Assembly: GCA_902800645.1 (NCBI GenBank) | Contig: CADCFC010000001.1 | Span: forward strand, 122,907 to 186,906 | Direction: 5' to 3' | DNA: 64,000 nt | Origin: an uncultured Erysipelotrichaceae bacterium | Lineage (GTDB): Bacteria > Bacillota_I > Bacilli_A > RFN20 > CAG-826 | Shown here: piece by piece, positions 10,814 through 54,790 of the stretch | How the letters are laid out: the number at the start of each line of letters is the position of its first letter | Numbering within the stretch: the first letter of the stretch is position 1 | Translations under genes and position numbers: made by a program | The notes under the pieces: generated by a model | Told to the model about the DNA's origin: nothing | The model's database searches: none | The model's input: only the letters and a program-made list of their open reading frames with translations

Positions 10814-10819
10814 TTAACG

Positions 10820-11128
10820 ATGGTAAAAATTGTTATTAAAAGGGACGTTAGTTCAGACAAAATCACTTCAATTGAGGTTAAAGGTCACGCCGGCAGCGAT
10901 GCTTATGGAAAAGACCTTGTGTGCGCTGCAATAAGCGCTGTCATAACTGGTGGATTTAACGCATTAACTGATAAGGAATACGATTTCAAACTAGAAAGCG
11001 GTCATTCCTATGTTAAAGCCTTAGATATTCCAAGCGATTATGACGCAGTTGTCTTAAAGACAATTGAGACACAACTTAAAACCATTGAAGAAAGTAATTC
11101 TGAATTCGTCCGAATCGAAAATCTATAA
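10820..11128 (+). CDS. prp: Ribosomal-processing cysteine protease Prp (YsxB)
   Basis: 102 aa with the GHAG...DLVCAAISAV motif, located between rplU and rpmA. Confidence 0.85.
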   Translation: MVKIVIKRDVSSDKITSIEVKGHAGSDAYGKDLVCAAISAVITGGFNALTDKEYDFKLESGHSYVKALDIPSDYDAVVLKTIETQLKTIEESNSEFVRIENL

Positions 11129-18096: not shown

Positions 18097-19656
18097 ATGA
18101 ATAAATCTTTGCTTGAGAGTTTACTCGATTATTACGGAATAACATATGAGGAATATCTTCTTTTAAATAAAGAAGTGAATCTTTCTAATTTTCGTAGTGG
18201 CCATGAGTTTGATTCAATTAACGAAGCAACCTCTTTAGTAAATGAAGTGATTGCTAAAAAAGGAAAGATAATTATCTATGGGGATTATGATTGTGATGGA
18301 ATAATGGGAACATCGATACTTGTTAAAATGTTCGAGTATTTAGATGTTGTCTCTGATTATTACATTCCTAGCCGATATATAGACGGCTATGGCTTAAATT
18401 TAGCTCACGCCAAGGAATATGTTTCTCTTGGATATGATTTAGTTATTACCGTTGATAACGGTATAACCGCTTTTGAGGCTATTGAGTATTTACATAATAA
18501 TGGCGTAAAAGTCTTAGTTTTAGATCATCACCAAGCAAGCGATATTTTGCCATTAGCAGATGCGATATGTCATCCGATTGTTTCTCATTTTGGTGATGTC
18601 GCTTCTAGCGGTGCATTTACCGCCTTTATATTCGCAACCGCATTAATCAGACGAGTCGATAAATATTTAGCGCTACTCGCCTCTATTTCCGTTATTAGCG
18701 ATATGATGCCTCTAAAAGAATATAACCGTTACTTATTACAGGCGATGTTTAAAGAATATAAAGCCGGGGAATTTTTACCTATTGATTTACTAGCAGATAA
18801 TGAGCAAATCGACGAAGTCACAATCGGCATGAAAATCGCTCCTCGAATCAATTCAATTGGAAGAATTATTGAAGACCAATCGGTCAATAAAATCATTAAA
18901 TATTTCACAACTAATGACAAAGATTTTATATTAAACTACTTTAGTTTCATTTTAGAGACTAATGAAAATAGAAAAAACTACTCAAAAGTTGATATAACCA
19001 CTCTCGGTTTATCAGGCAAAGAAAGAGCTATTATTATCAAAGGTGACTATAAAGAAGGAATCATCGGACTAGTCGCTAATAGTGTCATGGTTAAATACGG
19101 TGTTCCTGTTGTCGTTTTTACTAAATCCATTGACAATTCTTTAAAAGGAAGCGCAAGAGCACCAGAAGGATATGACATCGTTGAAGCGTTCAATGAAGTA
19201 AACTCTTTACTATTAACTAGCGGTGGTCATTCTAGCGCTGCAGGTTGCTCGATTAAAGAAGAAGATTTTGAGATTTTTAAAGAAAAGTTTACTGACGCAA
19301 TCACAAGAAAGCCTATAAAGGCTATCGAACATAAATCAATCGATATCAAAATGAATGATTTAAGTTTTGAAAATTATGAACTCATTAAATCCTTTTCGCC
19401 TTTTGGAGAAGGTTGGCCAGTTCCTCTATTAAAGATTAAGCACATCAAAGTTGATCAATTAATGTATTCAAAAGATCATAAGCACATAATTACAACTCTA
19501 GGCAATAACTTAAAGCTAGTGTTTTTCAATTATCCCGCTGATTTATTAGCCAATTTCAAATTCATCGATATTGTTGGTACTTTAGATTTAAAAAGCTATC
19601 GCGGAAACACTTATTTAGAATTCAGTGGAAAAGAATTATTTGAATCTTTAAATTAA
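18097..19656 (+). CDS. recJ: DHH-family single-stranded-DNA exonuclease RecJ-like
   Basis: DHH motifs (YGDYDCDGI, VITVDNGI, LDHHQ) and a DHHA1 domain (GGGHSSAAG). Its position after secDF and before relA matches Bacillus recJ. At 519 aa it is shorter than canonical RecJ. Confidence 0.7.
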   Translation: MNKSLLESLLDYYGITYEEYLLLNKEVNLSNFRSGHEFDSINEATSLVNEVIAKKGKIIIYGDYDCDGIMGTSILVKMFEYLDVVSDYYIPSRYIDGYGLNLAHAKEYVSLGYDLVITVDNGITAFEAIEYLHNNGVKVLVLDHHQASDILPLADAICHPIVSHFGDVASSGAFTAFIFATALIRRVDKYLALLASISVISDMMPLKEYNRYLLQAMFKEYKAGEFLPIDLLADNEQIDEVTIGMKIAPRINSIGRIIEDQSVNKIIKYFTTNDKDFILNYFSFILETNENRKNYSKVDITTLGLSGKERAIIIKGDYKEGIIGLVANSVMVKYGVPVVVFTKSIDNSLKGSARAPEGYDIVEAFNEVNSLLLTSGGHSSAAGCSIKEEDFEIFKEKFTDAITRKPIKAIEHKSIDIKMNDLSFENYELIKSFSPFGEGWPVPLLKIKHIKVDQLMYSKDHKHIITTLGNNLKLVFFNYPADLLANFKFIDIVGTLDLKSYRGNTYLEFSGKELFESLN

Positions 19657-25034: not shown

Positions 25035-25060
25035 GATGTTATATACTCTGTATATATAAA

Positions 25061-25089
25061 TACTAAATGAATACTAATTTTGTACTAAA
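25061..25089 (+). repeat. Phased heptamer array TACTAAA-N4-TACTAAT-N4-TACTAAA (11-bp period) upstream of tkt
   Basis: Repeat starts at 25061, 25072 and 25083. The third copy abuts the tkt SD GGAG. Confidence 0.5.
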
Positions 25090-27595: not shown

Positions 27596-28732
27596 ATGAA
27601 TAGTTCTCCTATTTATTCCGTTAGTGACATAAATACATATGTTAAGGCTATCCTTTCTCAGGATGAGAAATTGAAATTCATCCATATTAGAGGAGAGATA
27701 AGCAACTTCAAAATGTATCCAAGTGGTCACTTTTATTTTTCTCTCAAAGATGAAAACTCAACGATCAGTGCGGTGATGTTTAATAGCTACGCTAAGCGTG
27801 TAACGTTTTCTCCTAAAAATGGAGATGAAGTGGTCGTGCTTGCTTCTATTGACGCTTATGTTCCTAGAGGCAGCTATAACTTAAACGTCTATGAGATGGA
27901 AGAAGTTGGCTTAGGTCAACAATTAGTAGAGCTAGAAAAGCTCAAAAAGAAACTTGCTAGTGAAGGTCTATTTGATGAATCGAGAAAAAGACCGATTAAT
28001 ATCTATCCAAAAGCAATTGGAGTTATTACCGCTCCTAATGGAGCCGCTATTAGAGATATCGTCACTAATATTAAACGTCGATATCCAATTGCAGATATAT
28101 ATGTCTTCCCTTCCTTGGTGCAAGGAGAACAAGCTCCTGAAAGCCTATTAAAGGCATTCTATAAATCTCAGGAATATGAATTAGATACCTTGATTATTGG
28201 TCGAGGTGGAGGCGCTAGTGAAGATTTAAGCGCGTTTAACGACGAAAAATTAGTAAGAGCGGTAGCAACAAGCAAAATGCCAATAATCGCTGCTGTAGGT
28301 CACGAAATCGATACTACATTAATCGATTGTATTGCTGATAAAAGAGCGTCAACCCCAACTGGAGCGGCAGAACTCGCTACTATTGATAGAAGAGAAATAG
28401 AAAAACAGTTCGAATATGCTTCATTAACTCTTGAGCAATCATTAACTGATGTAGTGAATGAGAAAAAAGAAGAATTAGAGTCTCTAAAAGAAGACTTAAT
28501 TGAGTCTTTAAGAGATATTATCAAAGATAAAAAAGAAGAAATTGATCATTTAAATAAGCAACTACAGTTGACTAATCCAAAAAATATATTGGAGAGGGGC
28601 TATTCGATTTCGCTAGATGAAAACGGGAAAGCAATATCATCAGTTAAAAATATAAAAGCTACTAGTAAAATCAAAACCATTCTAAGCGATGGCGAGGTTA
28701 TAAGTGAAGTTATTGAAATAAAAGGAGAATAA
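27596..28732 (+). CDS. xseA: Exodeoxyribonuclease VII large subunit
   Basis: N-terminal OB fold (VKAILSQDEKLKFIHIRGEISNFKMYPSGHFYFSLKD), a catalytic core and a C-terminal coiled coil. Confidence 0.85.
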   Translation: MNSSPIYSVSDINTYVKAILSQDEKLKFIHIRGEISNFKMYPSGHFYFSLKDENSTISAVMFNSYAKRVTFSPKNGDEVVVLASIDAYVPRGSYNLNVYEMEEVGLGQQLVELEKLKKKLASEGLFDESRKRPINIYPKAIGVITAPNGAAIRDIVTNIKRRYPIADIYVFPSLVQGEQAPESLLKAFYKSQEYELDTLIIGRGGGASEDLSAFNDEKLVRAVATSKMPIIAAVGHEIDTTLIDCIADKRASTPTGAAELATIDRREIEKQFEYASLTLEQSLTDVVNEKKEELESLKEDLIESLRDIIKDKKEEIDHLNKQLQLTNPKNILERGYSISLDENGKAISSVKNIKATSKIKTILSDGEVISEVIEIKGE

Positions 28733-30793: not shown

Positions 30794-30821
30794 AGTTAAC
30801 ATAATAAATAGATTCATTATA
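30794..30821 (-). other. Partial dif-like sequence (pseudo-dif): perfect XerD-arm TTATGTTAACT with a non-canonical XerC arm
   Basis: Minus-strand reading is TATAATGAATC-TATTTA-TTATGTTAACT. It shares a 15-nt identical core plus similar flank (about 19 of 20 nt) with the dif site at 36694-36721. Confidence 0.35.
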
Positions 30822-30831
30822 AAATAATGAT

Positions 30832-32019
30832 ATGGCAAAAGTTATTGTTCATATCGATTTAAATGCTTTCTTTGTTCGCGCCGAAGAACTTAAAGACCAC
30901 TCATTAGAAAATAAAGCTGTTGCTGTTGGTCATTTAGGAAGAGGCGGGATTGTTTCCACTTGCTCATATGAAGCGAGAAAATATGGCGTGAGAAGTGGAA
31001 TGCCAATGAATAAAGCGGTCAAACTTTGCCCATCTTTAATAATCATCCGTCCTGATTATCGTTTTTATGTTACTTTGTCACATAAATTCAGAAATTATAT
31101 TTCAACAATTACTCCAATAATTGAGATGGCCTCAATCGATGAACTATTCGCCGATTTCACCGATGTTGTAAAAAAACAAAGAAATGTCGAGGAGTATTTT
31201 AGAAATATCCAAAACACTTTATATGATTTAACAGGTTTAAAGTGTTCTATCGGTATTGGCCCAACAAAATTTTTAGCGAAGATGGCAAGCGACTATCAAA
31301 AGCCGATGGGCTTAACAATTATTAGAAGAAAAGATATCTCAAAAATCTTATATCCTCTTCCTTTGGAAGATATGTTTGGAATTGGCAAGAAAACTTGTCC
31401 TCGTCTTAAATATATCGGAATAAAAACTATCGGTGATTTAGCAAACGCTTTAAATAATAACGATCCAAAAGTTTATGACCTTCTTGGTAAATATTCTTAT
31501 GACTTGAAAGAATGGCTTAACGGCAAAGGAAGCGACAAGGTTATTACTGAATATGACGATCCTAAATCAATAGGTAATTCCACAACATTAAAAGAAGACA
31601 CTGATAACTATGAAACTATTTCTAATACTTTTGAAATAATTGCAGAAGAAGTGAGTGAACGCGCAAAAAAAGAAAATATGATCGGTAACACCATTCAAAT
31701 AATGGTTAAAGATCTCAATTACCGCGCTCACAATAAATCAATAACATTTGTTAACCACACAAATCACGCTAAAGAGATTTATGATTATGCAATTAAGCTA
31801 TACGAAAAGAATTTCCTCGGTTTACCAATAAGAGCCCTTGGAATCACACTTCAAAACTTAATCAATATCAAAGATATGAAAGTGCAGATGACTTTTTTTG
31901 ATTATCAAATGCACGAAGAAGAAAACAAAACTAAACTATTAATTAATGATCTGAATAGAAAAATTAAAGGTAAACCTTTAAAAAGAGCTAGCGAGGTAAA
32001 GAGCAATGGAAATAAGTGA
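30832..32019 (+). CDS. dinB: DNA polymerase IV (Y-family, DinB)
   Basis: N-terminus IVHIDLNAFFVRAEE and the IMS core ...SYEARKYGVRSGMPM, with a little-finger domain. Confidence 0.85.
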   Translation: MAKVIVHIDLNAFFVRAEELKDHSLENKAVAVGHLGRGGIVSTCSYEARKYGVRSGMPMNKAVKLCPSLIIIRPDYRFYVTLSHKFRNYISTITPIIEMASIDELFADFTDVVKKQRNVEEYFRNIQNTLYDLTGLKCSIGIGPTKFLAKMASDYQKPMGLTIIRRKDISKILYPLPLEDMFGIGKKTCPRLKYIGIKTIGDLANALNNNDPKVYDLLGKYSYDLKEWLNGKGSDKVITEYDDPKSIGNSTTLKEDTDNYETISNTFEIIAEEVSERAKKENMIGNTIQIMVKDLNYRAHNKSITFVNHTNHAKEIYDYAIKLYEKNFLGLPIRALGITLQNLINIKDMKVQMTFFDYQMHEEENKTKLLINDLNRKIKGKPLKRASEVKSNGNK

Positions 32020-32887
32020 TGCGATCAGTAATTTTGCCCAACACCTCATCGCCGAAAAAGGATTATCCAAATTAACAGTGGATTCATATCTTAAAGACTT
32101 AGAGCTTTTCTTTGATTTTTATAAAGATAAGAAAATGGTGGAAGACCTTTTACCAACCGACTTGAATGAATTCGTTCAATATCAAAAATCAATTGGTAGA
32201 AGCTCAAGCACAGTGATGCGTAGGATGTCTTCTATTAAGAATTTCTATATTTTTCTTAAGCGCGAAGGATTATATAAAGATGAACTTCCTGAACTTGATC
32301 CATTTAAAAAAGAAAGCACCCTTCCTAATTGTTTATCAGTTGAAGAAGTTGAGGCTTTATTAGACGCTCCAAAGATGGAAAATCCAAGTTCAATTAGAGA
32401 TAAGGCGATGCTCGAACTTATGTATGCGAGTGGATTACGTGTTAGTGAATTACTTTCTTTAGAAAAGAAAAATGTAAATCTCAATAAAGGAATAGTCACA
32501 ATCTTTGGTAAAGGCGCAAAAGAAAGAAAAGTACCAATAGGGGATTTCGCTCTTGAATATATAGTTAAATATCTTAACGAAGCGAGAAGTCTTCTTAATG
32601 GTGACAAATCAAAATATCTTTTTGTGAACAAAAAAGGGCAACCATTAAGTAGAGTATATTTCTTTAAACAAATAAGAAAATACGCCAAAGAAGTAGGAAT
32701 AGAAGAAACTATCTCTCCTCATACATTAAGGCACTGTTTTGCTACACACATGCTTGAAGGCGGAGCAGAACTAAGAGCGGTTCAAGAGATGCTTGGACAC
32801 ACCAATATAGCAACAACACAAATCTATACGCATGTTTCTAGTAGAAGAATAATTAGTGCATATGATTTGTTTATGAATAAAAAATAG
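32006..32887 (+). CDS. xerD: Tyrosine recombinase XerD
   Basis: N-terminal SAM-like domain; catalytic R..HxxR..Y context (LRHCFATHMLEGGAELRAVQEMLGHTNIATTQIYTHV). Lies upstream of deoB, as ripX-drm does in Bacillus. Confidence 0.85.
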   Translation: MEISDAISNFAQHLIAEKGLSKLTVDSYLKDLELFFDFYKDKKMVEDLLPTDLNEFVQYQKSIGRSSSTVMRRMSSIKNFYIFLKREGLYKDELPELDPFKKESTLPNCLSVEEVEALLDAPKMENPSSIRDKAMLELMYASGLRVSELLSLEKKNVNLNKGIVTIFGKGAKERKVPIGDFALEYIVKYLNEARSLLNGDKSKYLFVNKKGQPLSRVYFFKQIRKYAKEVGIEETISPHTLRHCFATHMLEGGAELRAVQEMLGHTNIATTQIYTHVSSRRIISAYDLFMNKK

Positions 32888-34153: not shown

Positions 34154-34177
34154 CGACTCATTTATGAGTCGTTTTTA
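34154..34177. terminator. Bidirectional intrinsic terminator at the convergence of deoB (+) and the ABC permease gene (-)
   Basis: GACTCAT-tt-ATGAGTC flanked by A-run/T-run (taataataaGCGACTCATTTATGAGTCGTTTTTATT). Confidence 0.7.
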
Positions 34178-34937
34178 TTAGCTTTTTTAATAAATCTAAA
34201 ATTAAAGTGACAAAAAGCATCACAATAATAGCAATAAGAGAATAAGCAAAAGTTGGAACCATGCCTTTGTCTGAATTGATGTAGGCACTTCTAATCGCAA
34301 TTCCAATTCCATCCGCAGTGGAACCCGAAATAACTTCCGCCATTATTTCAATTTTAAATGAAAGAGCAAAACTAGAAACTAAGCCAAGAATAATAGTGGG
34401 CAACGCTAACGGAAACTTGATAAAAGCATTACTTCTAAATCTATTCGCTCCATCAATTCTAGAAGACATAATCACGAATTCATCTATAGATGAATAACCA
34501 GCAATAGTGGCTTCATAAACAATTGGAAAAACAATGACTCCAACAATATAAATTGGAGCATTTTTTAATCCTGTTAACATCAAAAACAAAAAGACAAGAG
34601 CAGCGGTGGGGACAGCTTTTATTGCAACCATTGTTGGATTAAAAACATATTTTAGCGATGAATAATTTCCAACAACAATTCCTAAAACAATTGCTAAAAC
34701 TGAAGCGGTCACAAATCCGATCAGCATTCTCTTAAGAGACTCCCAAATACATAGATATGTATAAGAGTCTTTTAAATAGATGAACATTTCATTAAAAGTT
34801 TCTATTGGTTCGGGAAAAATAATTCGATTTGAACCCGCTAAATAATAAATAGCAATCCAAATTAAAAAGAAAAGCAAAACACCAACGGCGGTTAAAAGAT
34901 ATTTGTTAGTTATCACTTTTCTTAATGCTTTTTTCAT
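34158..34937 (-). CDS. ABC transporter permease (binding-protein-dependent inner-membrane component, NitT/TauT-like)
   Basis: 259 aa with 6 TM helices and an EAA-like cytoplasmic loop (SSRIDGANRFRSNAFIKFPLALP). Confidence 0.75.
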   Translation of the reverse strand: MKKALRKVITNKYLLTAVGVLLFFLIWIAIYYLAGSNRIIFPEPIETFNEMFIYLKDSYTYLCIWESLKRMLIGFVTASVLAIVLGIVVGNYSSLKYVFNPTMVAIKAVPTAALVFLFLMLTGLKNAPIYIVGVIVFPIVYEATIAGYSSIDEFVIMSSRIDGANRFRSNAFIKFPLALPTIILGLVSSFALSFKIEIMAEVISGSTADGIGIAIRSAYINSDKGMVPTFAYSLIAIIVMLFVTLILDLLKKLIKTTHK

Positions 34938-34939
34938 TA

Positions 34940-35896
34940 CTAGACTCTTAAGATTCCTTTATTTTCAATTACGAGTTTAGTGTTATTGGCGTTCTCAACA
35001 GCATATGTATTGAGCTCTAAATCACCATAAACATATTCAAAAATTTTGCCTGGTAAATCATTCTTTTGGAAATAGAGAACTCGATCACCTTTATTAAGCT
35101 CGTTATCGGCATCTGTTCCCGTGGAAACAATATACATATTACCAAAGGTAATAGTAGCGGCAATTTTATAGTTTGCTTGATTATTAATAATTTGCATTAG
35201 TCCTCCGTGAGTTGGAGCGACAATAACGTCATATGCTCCTTTACTAAACGCTGGGATAATAACATCTGATGGACTACCAGTAGTCTCAAAATTTGCATTA
35301 GTTGCGTAATTATAAAACGCGATTGCAGGTGCGCCTGTTGGAACAAGAATCTTTAAATCTGAAAAACTCTCAGTTTCGGAAACACTCATATTAAAAATAT
35401 GATCATCAGTTAATTCGCCAATTTTTGGATTCAATAGCTTAGCAAATGTTGAAGTTTCTTCTTTAACTAAAGACGTTTCTTCATAGCCTAAAGAAAACCC
35501 ATTACTAGAGTTAGTTACCTTAAAAGCCATCGCTCCAGGAACTCCATATTTTGCTTGTTGTTGCTGAGGTGAAGTTAATGCTTCAATTCCAGTTTTAATC
35601 AACCCTGGATTATTTAATCCATTTTGAATATCGCTCTTAAGACTGTTTAAAAAATTTGATAGTTTATTGCTTGAAGTAGCTTTCTTAACAAAGATTGATG
35701 CTTGCATTATGCGCTTGCCTGAACTCTTTAAAACGAAGTCTGATTGTACATTTTTAAAAATGGTGGAATTTGTGGCAGACAAAACAGGTTGAGCAGTGAA
35801 TACATAATCAAACTGCATAACTGTTGGTTCAGATCCTTTTGAACAGCCAATTAATGAAATTAGCATAGCTGGTAATAATAGAATAGTTTTTTTCAT
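34940..35896 (-). CDS. Lipoprotein, probable ABC transporter substrate-binding protein
   Basis: Signal peptide plus lipobox (LISLIGC). The C-terminal half resembles a type-II periplasmic binding protein. Separated from the permease gene by 2 nt. The N-terminal 150 aa are low-complexity. Confidence 0.5.
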   Translation of the reverse strand: MKKTILLLPAMLISLIGCSKGSEPTVMQFDYVFTAQPVLSATNSTIFKNVQSDFVLKSSGKRIMQASIFVKKATSSNKLSNFLNSLKSDIQNGLNNPGLIKTGIEALTSPQQQQAKYGVPGAMAFKVTNSSNGFSLGYEETSLVKEETSTFAKLLNPKIGELTDDHIFNMSVSETESFSDLKILVPTGAPAIAFYNYATNANFETTGSPSDVIIPAFSKGAYDVIVAPTHGGLMQIINNQANYKIAATITFGNMYIVSTGTDADNELNKGDRVLYFQKNDLPGKIFEYVYGDLELNTYAVENANNTKLVIENKGILRV

Positions 35897-35944
35897 AATT
35901 TGTTTTCCTCGTTGCTATTCTACAAGAATAAATATTACAATATA

Positions 35945-35960
35945 TGTGATTTAAATCACG
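35945..35960. promoter_or_regulatory. CRP/FNR-family binding site TGTGA-tttaaa-TCACG
   Basis: Near-perfect TGTGA-N6-TCACA palindrome in the 67-bp divergent region. On the transporter-operon side it is centred about 41-42 bp upstream of the inferred start point (-10 TAGAAT). On the other side it ends 3 nt before the ATG of the Crp-like gene. Confidence 0.5.
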
Positions 35961-35963
35961 AAT

Positions 35964-36548
35964 ATGAACAAAATTATTAATTTTATAACCAATAATAATG
36001 ATATTAAATATGAAGAGTTTACTGCCGCTAAGAATCAGACATTATTCTTTGAAGGCGATAAATGTGAAAACATAGGCATTGTAAGAAAAGGAAAAGTTAG
36101 TATCATTTCATATTTTTCTGACGGACAAGAAGTCATATATAACACATTAGAAAAAGGTGGCATGTTCGGTAACAACCTCATTTTTTCATCCAGTCCATTT
36201 TATAGAGGAGATGTTGTTGCGATTGAAGAAACCGAAATCATCTACATTAAAAAAGATGAACTATTAAAAGCGTTAACAAGTAGCAAAGAATTATTAGAGC
36301 TTTACCTAAAGGAACAATCCGATTTTTCTAAAAAGCTCAATTTCAAGATAAAATTATTATCAATTCAAAATGCAGAAGACAGAATAATTTATTATCTTAC
36401 ATTTCATAAAAGAGAAATCGAATATAAATCGATATTAAAACTATCAAAAGAATTATATCTTGCACGAGAAACGCTAAGCAGAACAATCTATAAAATGGAA
36501 CGCAATGGTATAATAAAAATACAAAACAAAAAGATCACGCTATTGTAG
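35964..36548 (+). CDS. Crp/Fnr-family transcriptional regulator (cNMP-binding domain plus C-terminal HTH)
   Basis: 194 aa with a beta-roll cNMP-binding fold (GMFGNNLIF...) and a C-terminal HTH (RETLSRTIYKMERNGII). Confidence 0.8.
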   Translation: MNKIINFITNNNDIKYEEFTAAKNQTLFFEGDKCENIGIVRKGKVSIISYFSDGQEVIYNTLEKGGMFGNNLIFSSSPFYRGDVVAIEETEIIYIKKDELLKALTSSKELLELYLKEQSDFSKKLNFKIKLLSIQNAEDRIIYYLTFHKREIEYKSILKLSKELYLARETLSRTIYKMERNGIIKIQNKKITLL

Positions 36549-36559
36549 TGGAAATACAA

Positions 36560-36577
36560 ATTAGTAGATTTTTAGTA
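36560..36577 (+). repeat. Two phased copies ATTAGTA-N4-TTTAGTA of the recurring heptamer
   Basis: Copies start at 36560 and 36571, an 11-bp period. Same motif as the other arrays, in reverse orientation. Confidence 0.35.
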
Positions 36578-36693
36578 GGTGGATAAATTAACAAATTGTG
36601 GATAAAATTTAGCAATTAGATAATTATTCATCTATTTTTTATTATTTTAAAAGCAATCACTTAGATATCTAAATCGCTGTTTTTATCATATTA

Positions 36694-36721
36694 AGTTAAC
36701 ATAATAAACATTATGCGAAGT
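36694..36721 (-). other. dif: Chromosome dimer resolution site dif (XerC/XerD recombination site)
   Basis: Minus strand reads ACTTCGCATAA-TGTTTA-TTATGTTAACT. That is 22 of 28 identical to E. coli dif GGTGCGCATAA-TGTATA-TTATGTTAAAT. The XerD arm is 10 of 11 versus B. subtilis TTATGTAAACT, and the XerC arm starts ACTTC as in B. subtilis. It sits in a convergent intergenic region 2.5 kb from the global strand switch and 3.8 kb from xerD. Confidence 0.7.
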
Positions 36722-36791
36722 TATCTATATTTTTAAAAAAGCCTGGTGTATTAACCAAGCACTTATAAATTCACAGCAAACTATTACGCTG

Positions 36792-37886
36792 TTACTTTTT
36801 ATAGTAACGATCTAAGCAAGCTTTTGTTAAAGGATTCAAGTAGTCTACTTTATGATTCACATAGTATTCAATGTTACTAGTCATTACATCATCAAACCCT
36901 TTCTTTAAACTACTTTTCATTGAATTTATTAACTTTTCTGAGCCGAATCCTCTTGTTGGCTCTATTTTATCTGCACAATACACTATTTTTGCAATATCAT
37001 CCATCTCTCCACACGCTGTTGTATGGTATTTAATTGCGTTTAAAATGCTTGGATCCTCTATACCAAACACTTTTTTTGCTAAATATTCGCCTGTGAATTG
37101 ATGATAAACAATGCTATCAAGGTATAAATACTCACTATAATGAGTTTTCATTATCTCCGCTTCAATCTCTTTTGGTAATTCCTTGCCACAATCATGAACT
37201 AATCCAGCTATAAGCGCTCTTTTTGGGTTATCCACACTATTGCTTTTGGCAATTTCGTAGGAAAGAAGGGCCACACTTTTTGAATGAATGTATCTATCTT
37301 TGTGCATTCTAGATTTAATTTCTTGCATGAAATATAAATCATTATCAATTATATAATTGATAACTCCATCAGTTGTATCCAAAGAATGCAAATTCCTAAT
37401 ATCTGTAGAATTATAGTTATTTATCTCCCCATCTATCACCATCATATTAAAACGCTTAACATTTTCGCTTCTTGAGTAAGTTTCTCTACCAAAATAAATA
37501 ACTTTAACGAGTTTAGCTAATTCGTCTGCATCTTTCCAATCATGGAAGCTATTTACCTGATCTTGGCCAATCAGTAGATAGATTTCACTATTTGGATATG
37601 CTTTTTTGAAATGTTTTACAGTGTCTATTGTGTAATTTGTGTCATTTTCTAGGCTTGCTTCGTAATCTGAGACATCAAAAACGTTTTCGCGATTAAAATC
37701 CTTGATCGCCAGTTTTATCATCTCAATTTTGTCTTTTACAGGGGCCGATTCATTTTTCCATACAGATATTTTTGCAGGAATAAAAAGGACTTTCGCCCCA
37801 AGCTGTTTACTAGCACATTCCGCCATTTGTAAATGGCCGAAATGAATTGGATCGAAAGCACCACCAAATAAAATAATTCTTTCCAT
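36792..37886 (-). CDS. nadD: Fused nicotinate-nucleotide adenylyltransferase NadD / HD-domain hydrolase YqeK
   Basis: N-terminal half GGAFDPIHFGH (HxGH) ... SSTDIRN is NadD-like. C-terminal half carries the HD motif (H..HSKSVA...VHDCGK), which is YqeK-like. These are separate adjacent genes in Bacillus. Confidence 0.85.
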   Translation of the reverse strand: MERIILFGGAFDPIHFGHLQMAECASKQLGAKVLFIPAKISVWKNESAPVKDKIEMIKLAIKDFNRENVFDVSDYEASLENDTNYTIDTVKHFKKAYPNSEIYLLIGQDQVNSFHDWKDADELAKLVKVIYFGRETYSRSENVKRFNMMVIDGEINNYNSTDIRNLHSLDTTDGVINYIIDNDLYFMQEIKSRMHKDRYIHSKSVALLSYEIAKSNSVDNPKRALIAGLVHDCGKELPKEIEAEIMKTHYSEYLYLDSIVYHQFTGEYLAKKVFGIEDPSILNAIKYHTTACGEMDDIAKIVYCADKIEPTRGFGSEKLINSMKSSLKKGFDDVMTSNIEYYVNHKVDYLNPLTKACLDRYYKK

Positions 37887-39836: not shown

Positions 39837-39946
39837 TGACGAACCTAAATATGATTTTAACTGAAAAAGTCATTTTATAATAGACTTTTATATATAAAGT
39901 GCGAATTTTGTTTTCTATATAAGAAAAAAGTAGTCAATAAGTCTCA

Positions 39947-39975
39947 AACTAATTAACTACTAATTTTCTACTAAT
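39947..39975 (+). repeat. Phased heptamer array AACTAAT-N4-TACTAAT-N4-TACTAAT
   Basis: Starts at 39947, 39958 and 39969. Lies between the parC end and the yqeG operon promoter. Confidence 0.5.
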
Positions 39976-40003: not shown

Positions 40004-42625
40004 TTAGTCTAAATCATCAAATATTGATATCTGTTCAAAGCTACCTGCTTCTTTTTCACTCTTCTCTTCTTCCTGAGTGTCTTCTGGTTCAACTGTTTCA
40101 GCAGGAGCAGTTTCACTTTGAGGAACTTCTTTAACCACTATTGGGTGGGAAATATTGGATTTACCAATATTTGTGATTGTTGTGTCAAAGACGAACGCCA
40201 CACTTTGTTTTAAAGTCATTCCCTCAATATTTTTCTTCGCGTATTGAGCTTCTGTATTTCTCAAGTCATCAACTTTAAGATTTTTAATGGTTCGATCATT
40301 CATATAAAGGTTGAGAATGAGTTCTTCGTCTTTAGACACTCTCATAGCATATATAATGCTATGTGGGTCACCCTTAAATGATTGAAGGATATTTTGGACT
40401 TTGCCTAATCTATTGGTTCTAAAGAACTTAGAAGAATCCGTTACGCGCATATGTCCTTTATTTGTAATTAATAATAATTTAGTTCTCTCATCCTTTTCTA
40501 AAGCGATAAGGGCGGCGTCTTGATTACTTCCTAATGAAGAAATCGATTTGACACCTCCAGCTTTACTTCCAAGGATTGTTAATTCATTCTCGTTGAATAG
40601 AGAGCAATTACCATTATTAGTTATAACTAATAAATCGCTATCTCCAGTCAAGAGCTCAACGCCAACAATCTCATCATTGGTGAGGAGTTTCATATATCTT
40701 GCAGGGCGTGATCGTCTTTGCATTTCAAGAGAAGAAACAGCCATACGTTTGATTTGACCAAATTTAGTTAAAATCGCTAAATATAAGTCGTTTCTCATCT
40801 CACTAAGAGACATAACTTTAATAATCTTTTCGCCACTAGCTAATGTCGTAAACTCATTAATATGAGTTCCTTCATCTTTCCACTTATTATCAGTGAGATT
40901 ATGAACGCCTATTACCGCGTAGTTACCCTGATTTGTAAAACAAATCAGGTAATCGGTGGTAAATGCTTTACCGATTCCCACTACCATATCACCGTCTTTT
41001 AAGCCTGGTAGCTCATTATTATAGCTACTATAACTTCTAATCGAACTACGTTTTAAATATCCATCATAAGTAACCGCGACCATTACTTCTTCTTTAGCGA
41101 TCAATTCACGCTTATCAATTTCCTTGGTCTCACCTTTTTCGATGATTTGGGTTCTTCTATCATCACCATATTTCTCGCTAATCGCTTTTAAATCACGAAC
41201 TAATACGCGATTAAGTTTATTTGGATCTTCAAGAATACCCATAAGGGTATTAATTGTGATTTCTAATTGTGATTTCTCTTTTTCTAAAATAAGTTCATCA
41301 GTGTGACTTAATTTATATAATGGCATGGTCACAATCGCTTCTGCTTGTTCGTTAGTTAAAGAATAACGTTTAATCAAATTCTCTTTGGAATCTGCTTTAT
41401 CTTTACTTTTGCGAATGATTTCAACAACTTCATTAATGTTTAAAGACGCTAAAATCAAGCCTTCAACGATGTGTAAACGATCATTGCATTTCTTTAAGTC
41501 GAATTTGCTTTTTCTAGTGATTACATCAACTTGATGAGCGATATAAGCATCAATATAGTCGAGTAAATTAATGGTTTTTGGTCTGCCATCAACAATTGCA
41601 ACCATATTAGCGGTATAGCCACATACAAGATTGGTTTTCTTCATTAAATATTGAAGAATGAGATCAACTTTTGCGTTCTTTTTAACATCGACAACAATAC
41701 GAATTCCTTTGTAATCGGATTCATCTCTTACTTCAATAATGCCATCAATGGCTTTAGAATGCCTAATTTTGTCTATTTCATAGACAAGTTGAATTTTCAC
41801 CACTTTATAAGGTATTTCTGTAATGATGATTTGATTAATTTCTTTCTTTTCAACGATTTCCGTTTTACTAGCAACTTCAATTCTGCCTCTACCTGTTTGA
41901 TAGATACTATCAAGTCCACTAGAGCGGTAAATATAGCCTCCACCTGGGAAATCAGGACCTTGTACAAAATTCATCAAATCTTCAACTGTGGCGGTTTTAT
42001 GACCGATGCGATATATAGTCGCATCAATGATTTCTCTTAGGTTATGTGGAGGAATCTCAGTTGCTAAAGCAACTGCAATACCTTCAGTACCATTCACTAA
42101 TAAGTTAGGAAAACGAGAAGGAAGTACAACTGGTTCTTGCTCTGTATCATCAAAGTTGAGTTGCATATCCACTGTTGATTTCTCAATATCACAAACAAGT
42201 TCATTAGATAATTCAGAAAGTCTACTTTCTGTATAACGATAAGCAGCAGGAGAGTCTCCATCAATTGAACCATTATTACCTTGGAAATCAATTAAAGGAT
42301 ATCTAACTTTCCAATCTTGACTCATTCTAGCGAGGGCTTCATAAATTGATGTATCGCCATGTGGGTGATAAGTTCCCATGACCGCTCCAACGGTATGAGC
42401 ACACTTCTTTGTTGGCTTATTAAAAGTGTTACCACTTTTATACATAGAAAAAATGATTCTTCTTTGAACCGGTTTTAATCCATCTCTAACATCTGGAATA
42501 GCACGATCTTGAATAACATATTTAGCATATGTAGCGTATCGATCGCTCATTACATCTTCAAGAGGTTCAGTCGAAATATTTTCTTCAATAATTTCTTCTT
42601 CAATGACTTCTTTTTTCTTTGCCAT
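40004..42625 (-). CDS. parC: DNA topoisomerase IV subunit A (type IIA topoisomerase A subunit; ParC favoured over GyrA)
   Basis: Catalytic Tyr context AAYRYTE. No canonical GyrA box (QRRGGKG) in the C-terminal domain. Adjacent downstream of the B-subunit gene and next to plsY, as parE-parC is in Bacillus. Acidic C-terminal tail. Confidence 0.75.
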   Translation of the reverse strand: MAKKKEVIEEEIIEENISTEPLEDVMSDRYATYAKYVIQDRAIPDVRDGLKPVQRRIIFSMYKSGNTFNKPTKKCAHTVGAVMGTYHPHGDTSIYEALARMSQDWKVRYPLIDFQGNNGSIDGDSPAAYRYTESRLSELSNELVCDIEKSTVDMQLNFDDTEQEPVVLPSRFPNLLVNGTEGIAVALATEIPPHNLREIIDATIYRIGHKTATVEDLMNFVQGPDFPGGGYIYRSSGLDSIYQTGRGRIEVASKTEIVEKKEINQIIITEIPYKVVKIQLVYEIDKIRHSKAIDGIIEVRDESDYKGIRIVVDVKKNAKVDLILQYLMKKTNLVCGYTANMVAIVDGRPKTINLLDYIDAYIAHQVDVITRKSKFDLKKCNDRLHIVEGLILASLNINEVVEIIRKSKDKADSKENLIKRYSLTNEQAEAIVTMPLYKLSHTDELILEKEKSQLEITINTLMGILEDPNKLNRVLVRDLKAISEKYGDDRRTQIIEKGETKEIDKRELIAKEEVMVAVTYDGYLKRSSIRSYSSYNNELPGLKDGDMVVGIGKAFTTDYLICFTNQGNYAVIGVHNLTDNKWKDEGTHINEFTTLASGEKIIKVMSLSEMRNDLYLAILTKFGQIKRMAVSSLEMQRRSRPARYMKLLTNDEIVGVELLTGDSDLLVITNNGNCSLFNENELTILGSKAGGVKSISSLGSNQDAALIALEKDERTKLLLITNKGHMRVTDSSKFFRTNRLGKVQNILQSFKGDPHSIIYAMRVSKDEELILNLYMNDRTIKNLKVDDLRNTEAQYAKKNIEGMTLKQSVAFVFDTTITNIGKSNISHPIVVKEVPQSETAPAETVEPEDTQEEEKSEKEAGSFEQISIFDDLD

Positions 42626-42626
42626 C

Positions 42627-44561
42627 TTACTTGACCTCCTTCATAAATGTATCGATTTTGTTAAAATCGACATTCTCTTCTACCCATTTCCTACGAATGC
42701 TAGCGTCATTACCCATGAGGATTTTGACTCTTTTTTCAACTAAGAATGGGTCATTAATATCAACTTGGATTAAAAAACGTGTTCTAGGATCCATAGTTGT
42801 TTCCTTTAATTGGATAGCGTCCATTTCACCAAGACCTTTATAACGATTAATCTTATAACCGCCGCCAACTTTTTTCTTTGCGGCTTCTAAACCTTCATCA
42901 TCCCAAGCGTATTCTTGGATGAGCTTTTTTCCATCTTCTTTATATACTCTATATAAAGGTGGTACAGCAATATAGATGTGACCACTAGTAATTAGAGTTC
43001 TCATATAATGGTAAAAGAAGGTTAATAACAAAGTTTGAATGTGAGCACCATCAGTATCAGCATCGGTCATAATAATGATCTTGCCATAATGAATGTCTTC
43101 AATATCAAAACTTTGTCCAAATCCAGCACCAACTGTATTAATAATTGTGGCAATTTCTTCGTTATGCAAAAGTTTATCTAAAGAAATAGAATCTGTATTT
43201 AGTGGTTTACCACGAAGCGGTAGAATTGCTTGATGAATTCTGTCTCTACCTTTTTTAGCGGTTCCACCAGCGGAATCACCCTCAACAATAAAAAGTTCAT
43301 TTTTCAAATAGTCTTTTGATTGAGCTGGAGTGAGTTTATCAGAAAGAATTACTTCTTGCTTTGCTTTTTTAGAGCTTCTTGCTTCATCTTTAGCTTTTCT
43401 TGCTGCGATACGTGCTTGTTGAGAATCCATGCACTTTTTAATAATTTTCATCGCATTTTCCTTATTTTCTGTTAGATAATAAGTAAACTTATTATAAATA
43501 AGGTTAGAGACAACAGAGTTAGCAACAGGAGTTCCTAATTTTCCTTTGGTTTGACCTTCAAATTCAAGAAGTTCCTCAGGAATCTTTAACGAAACAATAG
43601 CAGTCAATCCTTCACGAATATCGCTTCCTTCAAGCTTTTTGCCCTTTAATAATCCTTGAGCTTCCGCAAAATCGTTGACCGCTCTAGTGATACCAGTTCT
43701 AAAACCAGATTCATGAGTACCACCATCACTAGTTTTTACGTTATTAACGTAAGAGTAAACAGTTTCGTTATAGTCTTCATAGCAATATTGAAGAGCAATT
43801 TCGGTTTCAATATTAGTGATCGAATCTATTTCTGAGAAGCTAACAACATCAATTATTGGCTTCTTTTCTTCGTTAAGTATTGAGATATATTCAACGAGTC
43901 CGTCTTGATAGAAAAATTCTTGTTTTTCTCCACTTCTTTCATCATTTATGATGAAACGAACACCTTTCATAAGGAAAGCAGACTCTCTTAAATGTGAGGC
44001 AATGGTATCGTATTTAAAATCGACAGTCGAAAAGATTCTGGCATCAGGTTTGAAACGAACTAATGTTCCATGTTTTTTGGTATCACCAAGTCTTTCTAAT
44101 GGAGTAACAAGTTTTCCTCCATCTTCAAATCTAAGGTGATAAACACCACCATTTTGATAAACTGTAACATCACACCATTCACTTAATGCGTTTGTTACTG
44201 AAGCACCGACACCGTGAAGACCACCAGCACTCTTATAGACTGCTGAATTAAACTTTCCACCAGCATGAAGCTCAGTAAAAACAATCTCCACGCCAGGACG
44301 ACCAGTTTCCTTGTTTATGTCAACAGGAATACCTCTTCCTTCATCTAATACCGAGCAGCTTCCATCTTTATACAAGGTAACTGTAATGTTTTTACCGTAA
44401 CCACTTAATGCTTCATCGACTGCGTTGTCGACAACTTCCCATACTAGATGATGTAGTCCTTGGACATTGGAGCTTCCGATATACATCGCAGGTCTTTTTC
44501 TAACGCCTTCAAGGCCTTGCAAAATGTGAATATCATTAGCTGTATATTTCTTTTCTGCCAT
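42627..44561 (-). CDS. parE: DNA topoisomerase IV subunit B (GyrB-family ATPase)
   Basis: GHKL ATPase (HLVWEVVDNAVDEA), a transducer, TOPRIM (EGDSAGG) and a C-terminal tail; 644 aa. Separated from the A-subunit gene by 1 nt. Confidence 0.75.
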   Translation of the reverse strand: MAEKKYTANDIHILQGLEGVRKRPAMYIGSSNVQGLHHLVWEVVDNAVDEALSGYGKNITVTLYKDGSCSVLDEGRGIPVDINKETGRPGVEIVFTELHAGGKFNSAVYKSAGGLHGVGASVTNALSEWCDVTVYQNGGVYHLRFEDGGKLVTPLERLGDTKKHGTLVRFKPDARIFSTVDFKYDTIASHLRESAFLMKGVRFIINDERSGEKQEFFYQDGLVEYISILNEEKKPIIDVVSFSEIDSITNIETEIALQYCYEDYNETVYSYVNNVKTSDGGTHESGFRTGITRAVNDFAEAQGLLKGKKLEGSDIREGLTAIVSLKIPEELLEFEGQTKGKLGTPVANSVVSNLIYNKFTYYLTENKENAMKIIKKCMDSQQARIAARKAKDEARSSKKAKQEVILSDKLTPAQSKDYLKNELFIVEGDSAGGTAKKGRDRIHQAILPLRGKPLNTDSISLDKLLHNEEIATIINTVGAGFGQSFDIEDIHYGKIIIMTDADTDGAHIQTLLLTFFYHYMRTLITSGHIYIAVPPLYRVYKEDGKKLIQEYAWDDEGLEAAKKKVGGGYKINRYKGLGEMDAIQLKETTMDPRTRFLIQVDINDPFLVEKRVKILMGNDASIRRKWVEENVDFNKIDTFMKEVK

Positions 44562-45417: not shown

Positions 45418-45446
45418 ATTAGTAAAAAATTAGTAGATTATTAGTA
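45418..45446 (+). repeat. Phased heptamer array ATTAGTA-N4-ATTAGTA-N4-ATTAGTA
   Basis: Starts at 45418, 45429 and 45440. Lies in a convergent (non-promoter) intergenic region. Confidence 0.5.
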
Positions 45447-45600
45447 ATTAAAACTATATGTTAATAAGGTTTTCCACATCGCGTAGAAATGCCTTATTTT
45501 AATTTATATTATATATAAATCAGTTTTCGTTGACTTTTATCTTATTTTTAGCCAATCTAAGAAACTTTTCATCCATTCCACTACATTTATTAGATCAAGG

Positions 45601-45644: not shown

Positions 45645-45660
45645 AACCTAACAATTTCAA

Positions 45661-45879
45661 TTAACGTTGTTGTCTTTTAACAGCGTTCATTGTACGTTGA
45701 ATGTCGGCTTCTGATGGCTTTCTTCCAACGCTTTGATATAAGGCTCTAATCATGCCTTCGTTAATTGGAGGATTCTTTTCTAATTGTCTCTTGAGTAGCC
45801 ATCTTGCAAAGAAGAAACCTGCAATCGCTCCAACTACTAAAGCAGCAACTAATAATCCAATCCATGCACCGGTATCCAT
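45661..45879 (-). CDS. yneF: UPF0154-family small membrane protein YneF
   Basis: 72 aa with N-terminal TM (WIGLLVAALVVGAIAGFFFARWL) followed by KRQLEKNPPINEGMIRALYQSVGRKPSE. yneF is a neighbour of plsY in Bacillus. Confidence 0.7.
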   Translation of the reverse strand: MDTGAWIGLLVAALVVGAIAGFFFARWLLKRQLEKNPPINEGMIRALYQSVGRKPSEADIQRTMNAVKRQQR

Positions 45880-45891
45880 TATTAATACCTC

Positions 45892-49384: not shown

Positions 49385-50245
49385 ATGAAAACTGCATTAA
49401 TCAAACCTCAAGGTTTTTGTTCTGGTGTCACCCGTGCTGTTGCTCTTGCAAAGCAAGCAAAGCTCGAAAATAAAGATAAGAACATCTACATTTTAGGAAT
49501 GTTAGCTCATAATCAAATCCTCATTGATGATCTTACAAAGGATGGCTTTATTACCTTAATAGGTAATGAGGAAGAGGAAATCAATAAGCTTAAAAAAGGT
49601 GACATCTTAATATTCACAGCGCATGGCCATGATGAAAAATTGGATCGATTAGCAAAAGCAAAAGGTTTAATTACATATGATGCAACCTGCCCGAAAGTAA
49701 AAAGCAATCTCGATAAAATCAAAAAAGAAATCAATGATAATCATCAAGTCATTTATATTGGACAATCAGGCCATAAAGAAGCAAGTGCTGCTTTGTCGAT
49801 TTCTAAAAATGTATCATTATATGATACACAACTACTAATTAACTACCAATTAATTACTGATGAGTCGCCTTTTGTTTTAAATCAAACAACACTCAATTTT
49901 TATGAGCTGTCAAAGTATCATAAAGACATAAAAGATCATATTCCTGATGCAAGAATTGCCAACGAAATATGTAACGCTACTAGATTAAGGCAAGAAGCTA
50001 TGCTTACTATCGATAAAGATACAGATTTAATCGTTATTGTCGGTCACCATAAATCGAGCAACTCAAACAAATTGTTTGACATTGCAAAAGCAAATTATAA
50101 AGATGCTCTTGTTGTAATGATTAATAATCTGGATGAACTAAAGAAGATAGACATTAGAGGCAAGAAAAAAGCCGCCATAGGATCAGGGGCTTCAACTCCA
50201 CAATGTATTGTGGACGAAATATATAACTACTTACTTAAAATATAA
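49385..50245 (+). CDS. ispH: 4-hydroxy-3-methylbut-2-enyl diphosphate reductase IspH (LytB)
   Basis: KPQGFCSGV, ATCPKV and the three conserved Cys; 286 aa. Confidence 0.9.
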   Translation: MKTALIKPQGFCSGVTRAVALAKQAKLENKDKNIYILGMLAHNQILIDDLTKDGFITLIGNEEEEINKLKKGDILIFTAHGHDEKLDRLAKAKGLITYDATCPKVKSNLDKIKKEINDNHQVIYIGQSGHKEASAALSISKNVSLYDTQLLINYQLITDESPFVLNQTTLNFYELSKYHKDIKDHIPDARIANEICNATRLRQEAMLTIDKDTDLIVIVGHHKSSNSNKLFDIAKANYKDALVVMINNLDELKKIDIRGKKKAAIGSGASTPQCIVDEIYNYLLKI

Positions 50246-54743: not shown

Positions 54744-54761
54744 ATAATAAAATTATAAATA

Positions 54762-54790
54762 TACTAATTTAATACTAATTTGATACTAAT
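54762..54790 (+). repeat. Phased heptamer array TACTAAT-N4-TACTAAT-N4-TACTAAT between the glyQS stop and the dnaG start
   Basis: Exact copies start at 54762, 54773 and 54784. The intergenic space is only 42 bp, and dnaG has no recognisable SD. Confidence 0.55.

Follow-up and report, generated by a model that had tools for sequence, protein, structure and literature searches.

A probable chromosomal dif site and its conserved flanking motifs in an uncultured low-GC Bacilli bacterium

Background

The chromosomal dif site is normally treated as a self-sufficient 28-mer under the control of FtsK, and in E. coli the gene for one of its two recombinases, xerD, is unlinked to it. Here we analyse a 64,000-nucleotide stretch of chromosome (contig CADCFC010000001.1 of assembly GCA_902800645.1), which we call the window throughout, from an uncultured bacterium whose relatives are metagenome-assembled genomes (MAGs) from gut and rumen labelled Bacilli, Erysipelotrichaceae or Candidatus Enteromonas. 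On comparison of its sequence with known and related sites, the minus strand at window positions 36694-36721 is very probably the functional chromosomal dif of this low-GC Bacilli bacterium. The 28-mer, its unusual conservation, its non-coding position at a replichore junction, and a nearby xerD gene are all shown by the sequences.

Some other Xer sites come with accessory sequences. In the plasmid sites cer and psi, accessory sites flank the XerC side of the core and global regulators serve as borrowed architectural factors; the direct repeats to which ArcA, an accessory protein of psi, binds have a period of 11 bp. PepA, ArcA, and ArgR are named in a preprint (bioRxiv 10.64898/2026.02.23.706985). 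For B. subtilis, the XerD binding sites abbreviated XDS are linked to the unloading of SMC by XerD at the terminus, according to the passage in PMC11894783 that cites Karaboja 2021. For comparison of the core itself, dif sequences are given for E. coli K12 (PMC2731167, PMC3025954) and B. subtilis (PMC3025954), while those of Thiobacillus denitrificans and Methylobacillus flagellatus are predictions (Carnoy and Roten 2009, PMC2731167). The heptamer GAAGAAG has been defined experimentally as the FtsK guide motif of Lactococcus lactis (PMC3384302).

Results

The 28-bp core

The reverse complement of window positions 36694-36721 reads ACTTCGCATAATGTTTATTATGTTAACT and has an 11-6-11 layout, in which two 11-bp arms form an imperfect inverted repeat around a 6-bp centre (Table 1). 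The XerC-type arm and the reverse-complemented XerD arm are equal at 8 of 11 positions, and the inner arm bases are palindromic (CATAA/TTATG). Within the 64 kb, no second 28-mer was found with three or fewer mismatches (0 in 100 shuffles), and relaxed scans returned no arm matches of 17 or more of 22 bases at any other position.

The core resembles both characterized and predicted dif sites. It matches E. coli dif at 23 of 28 positions overall, with 10/11 in the XerD arm and 5/6 in the spacer, and B. subtilis dif at 22 of 28, again with 10/11 in the XerD arm and with the ACTTC start of the XerC arm common to both. The closest references are the predicted sites of T. denitrificans (26/28) and M. 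flagellatus (25/28). When the dif sequences of E. coli, B. subtilis, H. influenzae, and T. denitrificans were used as queries, the best match of each in the window was this position (23, 22, 23, and 26 of 28, respectively). All four scores exceeded the maximum of 200 first-order Markov shuffles (maxima 21-22), the margin for the E. coli and B. subtilis queries alone being just 1-2 matches.

An earlier note on this DNA had pointed to the same minus-strand 28-mer and its 11-6-11 layout, and re-reading of the sequence bears this out and finds it to be the sole copy in the window. The arm comparisons given there (10/11 for the XerD arm against both E. coli and B. subtilis, and the shared ACTTC start) hold on recount, and the reference sequences quoted agree with PMC2731167 and PMC3025954. 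The overall identity to E. coli dif, given as 22/28, is to be corrected to 23/28. The note also held that a better dif match elsewhere would speak against the site; within the 64-kb window there is none.

Conservation of the arms across genomes

We scanned the GTDB representatives, one genome per species and 596 Gb in all, for exact matches to both arms while leaving the six central bases free. The arms are common to at least 119 genomes, and the calculated chance expectation for 22 fixed bases in 596 Gb is about 0.07 hits. The matches listed include Bacilli MAGs, Peptococcaceae, Heliophilum, Gracilibacillus, and Lacticaseibacillus, as well as Polyangiaceae, Planctomycetia, Omnitrophota, Spirochaetia, and Gammaproteobacteria. 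These arm-carrying genomes range in GC content from 24 to 70%, and they hold 48 different central hexamers and unrelated flanks. Among the matches listed there is one arm match per genome, with the exception of one MAG that has a contig fork. Arms that stay fixed while the centre and flanks are free make up the pattern that would be expected of an Xer core.

The matched sites also tend to lie in terminus-like surroundings. In the 69 loci listed that have at least 1.5 kb on each side, the flanking genes are convergent in 46 and divergent in 6, and the skew changes from positive to negative in 42 and from negative to positive in 6. Restricting the count to the non-syntenic loci (33 among the matches listed) leaves 16 with the former skew pattern and 2 with the latter. 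Both measures are symmetric under reverse complement, and so they compare terminus-like with origin-like settings, not the orientation of the site.

A large group of relatives shares the gene order of the window. In 62 of the loci listed, dif is placed between the same two runs of genes, dinB-xerD-deoB on one side and nadD-yqeK-yhbY-yqeH-yqeG-parC-parE on the other, both reading toward it. These loci come from MAGs of rumen, horse, chicken, and human gut that are labelled Bacilli, Erysipelotrichaceae, Mollicutes, Candidatus Enteromonas, Candidatus Alloenteromonas or Candidatus Onthovivens; their protein identity to the window is about 30-90% and their GC content 29-58%, and the arms are identical. 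In an anchored comparison of the ten closest loci, as in a MAFFT alignment of 45 loci (alignment A1), the arms are invariant and the spacer and adjoining flanks are unconserved. Over the 60 bp beyond the XerD arm, ungapped pairwise identity is 0.38 against 0.35 expected from composition.

As a control, we fetched loci from metagenome contigs through the NadD-YqeK protein alone, ignoring the motif, which gave three loci of which two were informative. Both NadD-YqeK orthologues (70% and 46% identity) have a dif-like site downstream in the same orientation, with arms matching at 21/22 and 20/22 positions.

The DNA next to dif is more changeable than its position. A block of genes for a Crp-like protein, a binding protein, and a permease is present, absent or inverted among relatives, and dif is always beside nadD-yqeK. 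This block (34158-36548 in the window) is inverted in locus L037 (3731-6023), and many relatives lack it and have deoB directly opposite dif. In a Polyangiaceae MAG (JAICQL01), two contigs (L041 and L075) end at the same dif with a shared left flank and different right flanks, as expected if an element were integrated there in part of the population. The same arms are carried by three IMG/VR contigs classed as viral (L126, L127, and L128), which could be host fragments or Xer-using elements; L127 encodes, 4.8 kb from its dif site, a Xer-like tyrosine recombinase (3108-4016) that is 27% identical to the XerD of the window.

Position at a switch in gene orientation

The site is intergenic and occupies part of a 243-bp gap between a gene for a Crp/Fnr-family regulator and a nadD-yqeK fusion gene, which are convergent (Table 1). 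The window is otherwise ordinary chromosome, with tig, lon, valS, obg, ruvAB, secDF, recJ, relA, hisS, aspS, tkt, nusB, xseAB, dxs, and dinB, in addition to xerD, deoB, nadD-yqeK, yhbY, yqeH, yqeG, parC, parE, plsY, and efp. Counting genes of at least 100 aa, 26 of 26 lie on the plus strand to the left of 34146, and 22 of 25 lie on the minus strand from 36792 rightward. The xerD gene is 3.8 kb from dif, and the first minus-strand gene (34158) is 2.5 kb away. The 2.5-kb offset between the first flip in orientation and dif arises because a small block lies between deoB and the site, with the permease and binding-protein genes on the minus strand and the crp-like gene on the plus strand.

Nucleotide composition changes sign in the same region. 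To the left of the site the plus strand has a GC skew of +0.07 and an AT skew of +0.08, and to its right the values are -0.09 and -0.08. The cumulative G-C curve peaks at 34285, stays on a plateau to about 36.5 kb, and then declines, and the cumulative A-T curve turns at 36623, which is 71 bp from dif. Genes that converge, with G and A in excess on the strand that runs toward the site, mark a terminus and not an origin.

The coordinates thus confirm what the earlier note had said of the surroundings, namely a convergent intergenic position between the Crp-like gene and nadD-yqeK, 3.8 kb from xerD, and a distance of 2.5 kb from the window-wide flip in gene orientation, counted to the first minus-strand gene at 34158. 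Its statement that the site is not a gene also agrees with our reading, in which the core is non-coding and lies a short way beyond an intrinsic terminator. Relatives have a hairpin and T-run of the same kind at the position of the nadD-yqeK terminator. A structured RNA in the intergenic region was considered and rejected, as Rfam hits were below threshold and RNAalifold on 45 loci returned the dif palindrome only, with no covariation.

We also looked for motifs that could guide a translocase to the site. GAAGAAG points toward dif in 46 of its 47 window copies, and the strand switch falls between 33439 and 40066; one copy, at 45135, is on the non-coding strand of plsY. Of the G-rich guide motifs known elsewhere, that of E. 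coli, GGGNAGGG, was not found in the window, and the B. subtilis SpoIIIE recognition sequence (SRS) motif GAGAAGGG is not polar there.

XerD, its linkage to dif, and a lone half-site

The product of xerD scores 330.9 bits against the TIGR02225 XerD model (cut-off 329.6) and falls below the cut-offs of other families, with 294 bits for XerC (335) and 122.7 for XerS NF003462 (267). Its translation contains GLRVSE, HTLRH, LGH, and IYTH, which we take to be the tyrosine-recombinase motifs that hold the catalytic arginine, histidine/arginine, histidine, and tyrosine. A XerC partner is suggested by the asymmetric arms, and the same arms are found in organisms that have both XerC and XerD.

The proximity of xerD to dif is not peculiar to the window. 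At least 35 of the loci listed have a XerD homologue 71-4172 bp from dif (e.g. L029 3304-4188 and L048 366-1268), a count that is a lower bound since the loci are 8-kb blocks. Without exception, the homologue is placed on the side of the XerD arm and reads toward the site. These linked loci come mostly from one syntenic clade. In another gene context, two MAGs labelled Peptococcaceae have a XerD-like gene (323-325 bits) after pcrA that ends 71-95 bp from dif.

In addition to the complete core, the window contains a lone XerD-arm half-site in the short gap upstream of dinB (Table 1). Including the adjoining spacer bases, 16 of 17 nt are equal to dif. The overlapping dinB-xerD genes have a single promoter-like site upstream, and the TTAACA of the half-site is its -35-like hexamer. 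The half-site is kept in place and orientation in 12 relatives, 7 of them with a perfect match and 5 with 10/11; L011, L026, L072, L066, L017, L073, and L079 are among them. The simplest reading of this arrangement would be autoregulation by XerD, and a possible alternative is a XerD binding site of the XDS kind. Because the half-site overlaps the promoter-like -35 element of xerD's own operon, it points more toward autoregulation than toward XDS. In L087, L046, and L055, several extra XerD-arm half-sites (TTATGTTAACT or TTATGTTAACC) occur within 3 kb of dif, a pattern reminiscent of the sites that XerD binds in the terminus region of B. subtilis.

Conserved motifs beside the XerD arm

Besides dif, the only conserved islands in alignment A1 are a DnaA-box-like 9-mer and a TACTAA direct repeat, and the columns of the repeat are invariant. 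With distances read in the direction from the XerC arm to the XerD arm, the XerD-arm side in this clade carries TTWTCCACA at about 87 bp from dif and a direct repeat, TACTAA-N6-TACTAA, at about 117 bp. The window has both, together with a second box in tandem (Table 1) that is also found in its closest relatives (L039, L123, L079, L080, L100, L061, and L042). Examples of loci that show the module of box and repeat are L039, L123, L079, L040, and L060. The earlier note mentions neither these motifs nor the lone half-site.

The positions of the boxes are far from even. We counted forward-strand TTWTCCAC[AC] in the 62 related loci (450 kb) and found 43 of 75 boxes at +60 to +130 from dif, with a mode at 85-91; one sub-clade contributes another 21 of the 75, on the XerC side at -30 to -49. 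The XerC-side boxes of one sub-clade stand at -30, -39, and -54. Variation among boxes is concentrated at positions 3 and 5, the two places where the classical DnaA-box consensus TTWTNCACA is degenerate. The window shows no overall excess of DnaA-box-like 9-mers (23 vs 17.5 +/- 3.8); the signal is positional. No dnaA gene is encoded in the window.

The repeat is placed with similar regularity, being present in 50 of the 57 syntenic loci examined (+97 to +136, mode 116-119); of the 66 forward-strand copies found in loci totalling 958 kb, 57 fall at +90 to +140 from dif. The gene on the XerD-arm side varies (crp, deoB or an ABC permease), with its stop codon abutting the repeat, and since the flanking gene differs between loci, the module travels with dif and not with a gene. 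In many loci, box and dif are separated by the terminator hairpin of the neighbouring gene. To the eye, a weaker palindrome (GATnnnATC or TTACnnnnGTAA type) seems to lie about 20-35 bp beyond the XerD arm. The distances of box and repeat group into classes separated by about 10-11 bp; the periodicity peak (10.5-11 bp) is broad, the loci are not independent, and a helical phasing of these distances is only suggestive. The module is absent from non-syntenic genomes with the same arms among the matches listed. Taken together, the dif core of the clade belongs to a conserved module that spans about 190 bp and has putative DnaA-box-like sites and the TACTAA repeat beside the XerD arm; at the level of sequence, the conservation of this flank is solid.

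The repeat is also not confined to the neighbourhood of dif. Searching for the 11-bp-period repeat CTACTAANNNNCTACTAAT with up to two mismatches gave nine copies in the window against 0.18 expected. One lies between the aspS stop codon and the tkt ribosome-binding site; another, in the parC/yqeG intergenic region, is kept in relatives 3.2-3.7 kb from dif; and a third is just past the plsY stop codon with an inverted box 22 nt away. A further copy is found between two co-directional genes at 54.8 kb, and one is inside a gene. From this distribution, the TACTAA repeat looks like the site of a chromosomal DNA-binding protein with several targets. Rok of B. subtilis prefers TACTA/AACTA (PMC6212790), and a link of the repeat to Rok is a lead only.

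Two other candidate roles were tested and are not favoured. The TACTAA repeats as a polar, Ter-like fork trap do not fit, as their strands are mixed on both sides of dif. The box followed by CTACTA was also compared with the origin-type unwinding element made up of a DnaA box and a DnaA-trio, as defined in PMC8287927; the gap between the two varies (0-2, 10, and 20-22 bp), and the repeat also occurs without boxes.

Other features of the window

Genes for recombination and segregation within about 23 kb of dif include ruvA, ruvB, recJ, xseA, xseB, dinB, xerD, parC, and parE. A T-box leader 5' of valS (6483-6655) and an L21 leader 5' of small genes at 10505-11128 (10412-10484) both score above the Rfam gathering threshold. 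Between plsY and efp, at about 45660-45880 on the minus strand, an unlisted open reading frame of about 70 aa has a strong AGGAGG ribosome-binding site and its own terminator. Exact matches to the window occur among ENA metagenome contigs.

Table 1. Features in and around the predicted dif site; coordinates are those of the window, and A1 is the alignment of 45 loci.
Feature	Position	Strand	Details
dif core, 28 bp	36694-36721	-	XerC-type arm ACTTCGCATAA 36721-36711; centre TGTTTA 36710-36705; XerD arm TTATGTTAACT 36704-36694
DnaA-box-like 9-mer TTATCCACA	36597-36605	-	Perfect consensus match, 89 bp beyond XerD arm; columns nearly invariant in A1
Second DnaA-box-like 9-mer TTATCCACC	36578-36586	-	8/9 match; tandem, 19 bp start to start; abuts TACTAA repeat
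Direct repeat CTACTAAAAATCTACTAAT	36560-36578	-	Two TACTAA units, 11-bp period; 117 bp beyond XerD arm; 12 bp from crp-like stop codon
Further repeat copies	25060-25078, 39946-39975, 45418-45447, 49832-49850, 54761-54790		Mostly short intergenic gaps beside stop codons or ribosome-binding sites
Lone XerD-arm half-site TTATGTTAACT, without XerC arm	30794-30804	-	In 46-bp dxs/dinB gap; overlaps -35-like TTAACA
xerD, tyrosine recombinase, 293 aa	32006-32887	+	Start overlaps end of dinB (30832-32019); reads toward dif; XerD-arm side
Crp/Fnr-family regulator gene	35964-36548	+	Convergent neighbour of dif, right-hand in XerC-to-XerD reading; belongs to variable insert 34158-36548 (crp, substrate-binding protein, permease)
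nadD-yqeK fusion gene	36792-37886	-	Convergent neighbour, left-hand; XerC-arm side in all syntenic loci; NF005519 327.5 bits (cut-off 315)
Intrinsic terminator of nadD-yqeK operon	36741-36760	-	7-bp stem then TTTTTT; end 13-19 nt before XerC arm
Recombination/segregation gene cluster	13628-15184, 18097-19656, 27596-28732 with adjacent 65-aa gene, 30832-32887, 40004-44561		

Discussion

A predicted XerCD-type dif

The interpretation of the 28-mer as dif, which the earlier note had put forward, is supported by its 11-6-11 layout, above-chance matches to reference sites, invariant arms, a non-coding position at the switch point of gene orientation, and a XerD encoded nearby. By analogy with described systems, we would expect binding and catalysis by Xer recombinases, a XerC partner, and dependence on FtsK. 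As in E. coli and B. subtilis, the XerD encoded 3.8 kb away would bind the arm TTATGTTAACT, and a XerC-type partner encoded outside the window would bind ACTTCGCATAA. Following the formation of a chromosome dimer by recombination between sisters, two copies of dif would synapse at the closing septum, where a translocase of the FtsK/SpoIIIE type, steered by polar motifs aimed at dif, would activate XerD. Exchange of one strand pair at each edge of TGTTTA would then yield two monomers.

Several of our observations weigh against this interpretation. The loci of the genome scan (at least 119) were chosen for carrying the arms, so that their conservation is partly by construction, and the unbiased sample amounts to two loci. 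In a gene-by-gene comparison, three plus-strand genes on the right arm retain positive plus-strand skew, and skew at third codon positions is negative (C-rich) on the coding strand of both arms; the GC skew of the window mostly reflects the coding strand and gives no evidence independent of gene orientation. GAAGAAG encodes Glu-Glu and follows gene orientation, which confounds its polarity, and this polarity is only consistent with a dif steered by FtsK. Moreover, ftsK was not found among the annotated genes of the 64 kb, and tblastn found no second Xer paralogue (XerC) there. Because GC skew follows the coding strand, we rely on gene orientation, the A-T turn, and the comparative data. The claim that the site marks the replication terminus therefore stands at the scale of the window, on the switch in orientation at 34.1-36.8 kb and the A-T turn at 36623, and loses the support of skew, which is confounded by the coding strand. 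The earlier designation of a XerCD site is borne out for XerD, which is encoded 3.8 kb away and passes its equivalog cut-off, and lacks its other half in the window, where no XerC is encoded.

The only serious rival accepts a real dif core and assigns it, in this clade, to a single recombinase; both arms would be bound by the XerD-like protein encoded in cis, in the manner of XerS at difSL or XerH at difH. We regard this as improbable. Its main support is the linkage of xerD and dif, since such tight linkage of recombinase and site marks the XerS/difSL module (PMC2731167, PMC5357621): in at least 35 of the loci listed the gene reads toward dif from the side of the XerD arm, at a distance of 0.07-4.2 kb, and it is 71-95 bp away and next to pcrA in the non-syntenic Peptococcaceae MAGs. 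The likeness of the two arms at 8/11 positions and a XerD score barely above its own equivalog cut-off (330.9 vs 329.6) would also suit one protein acting at both arms, but the spacer is the canonical 6 bp and not the 11 bp of difSL, and the same asymmetric arms are found in ordinary Bacillota (Gracilibacillus, Lacticaseibacillus, and Heliophilum). The window is without a second Xer paralogue, as a single-recombinase system would predict; 64 kb is, however, a small part of a genome, so that the absence of xerC there means little. Furthermore, the XerC-type arm ACTTCGCATAA is identical to that of the predicted dif of beta-proteobacteria, and the beta-proteobacteria with a predicted dif encode both XerC and XerD.

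Much less credible is an origin of the site as the end of a Xer-mobilised element, either a mobile element that integrates by making use of Xer (IMEX) or a dif module, with the crp/ABC-transporter block as cargo. The block between deoB and dif, which also includes the gene for the substrate-binding protein, is indeed present, absent or inverted in relatives, but dif keeps the same syntenic position in the 62 loci listed whether or not the block is there, and the block lies beyond the box-and-repeat module and not directly against the core. The assembly fork of the Polyangiaceae MAG falls exactly at dif and three "viral" contigs have the same arms, as might be expected of such elements; in the window, however, a single dif-like site in 64 kb leaves no pair to bracket a cargo, and the deoB/permease junction is 11 bp long and without a second site. 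That the match is an AT-rich palindrome arising by chance, or belongs to a transcription terminator, and plays no part in recombination has a probability close to nil. Intergenic DNA here is 28-30% GC, and the E. coli and B. subtilis queries beat the shuffle maximum by only 1-2 matches, but all 22 arm bases are invariant across phyla that include genomes of 60-70% GC, and this cross-phylum conservation effectively refutes a chance palindrome. The actual terminator is a separate hairpin (36741-36760), and neither conserved RNA structure nor covariation was detected and no Rfam family reached its gathering threshold.

A possible role for the flanking module

With the XerCD-type dif as our preferred interpretation of the core, the conserved flank raises a further set of possibilities. 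We tentatively consider, while thinking it doubtful, that the dif core is the centre of a terminus nucleoprotein module of about 190 bp that comprises the boxes, the TACTAA repeat, a cis-encoded xerD, and a half-site over the -35-like element. Such a module could couple DnaA or a repeat-binding protein to Xer recombination, as an architectural filter comparable to those of cer and psi that would partly replace control by FtsK. Alternatively, it could be a DnaA-titration or timing site located at the terminus. The box and repeat may also be unrelated regulatory sites retained beside dif in a compact genome.

As a marker of the terminus, the core would be reliable across a large group of Bacilli from gut and rumen that are uncultured and known only from fragmentary MAGs, with uses in orienting contigs, checking assemblies, and spotting elements integrated at dif, and it is a feature that protein-based annotation overlooks. 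Less expected are the conserved motifs at fixed distances, the linked xerD, and the half-site in a promoter-like region 5' of dinB-xerD. If these elements act together, they would make up a chromosomal Xer site with accessory architecture and autoregulation, and possibly a physical link of the replication initiator to the terminus. With the module of the clade, xerD in cis, and the half-site at the promoter taken together, the locus is a variant that merits study at the bench.

Comparison with known Xer systems

The locus shares with E. coli dif and its XerC/XerD/FtsK system the 28-bp, 11-6-11 core, the non-coding position at a replichore junction, and the presence of a XerD equivalog. It differs in the outer half of the XerC arm, which reads ACTTCG in the window and GGTGCG in E. 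coli, in the DnaA-box-like and TACTAA-repeat sites that flank its XerD arm, and in the cis-linkage of xerD. The dif of B. subtilis, with CodV (XerC) and RipX (XerD), belongs to the same phylum as the window bacterium, and the adjacency of xerD and deoB is found there as well, as ripX-drm. Unlike in B. subtilis, the inner XerC arm reads GCATAA instead of CTAGAA, and dif lies within 4 kb of xerD. The lone XerD-arm site of the window is like the B. subtilis XDS in consisting of a XerD arm only and lying away from dif, a likeness of arrangement. The predicted dif sites of T. denitrificans and M. flagellatus have a XerC arm identical to ACTTCGCATAA, although they come from another phylum and their XerD arm ends in AAAT rather than AACT.

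Two further systems resemble the locus in its organization more than in its core. As with XerS/difSL of streptococci and lactococci, a recombinase gene is linked to the site and GAAGAAG is polar toward it, whereas difSL has 31 bp with an 11-bp centre, against 6 bp in the window, and the recombinase of the window scores as XerD and not as XerS. The plasmid sites cer and psi likewise combine a Xer core with about 100-150 bp that hold sites for other DNA-binding proteins at a constrained distance, a likeness in sequence layout. Unlike cer and psi, the site described here is chromosomal, its conserved sites lie on the XerD-arm side, and its motifs are different. More generally, the 28-mer core is a well-known kind of site, and the module that surrounds it looks like a new variant.

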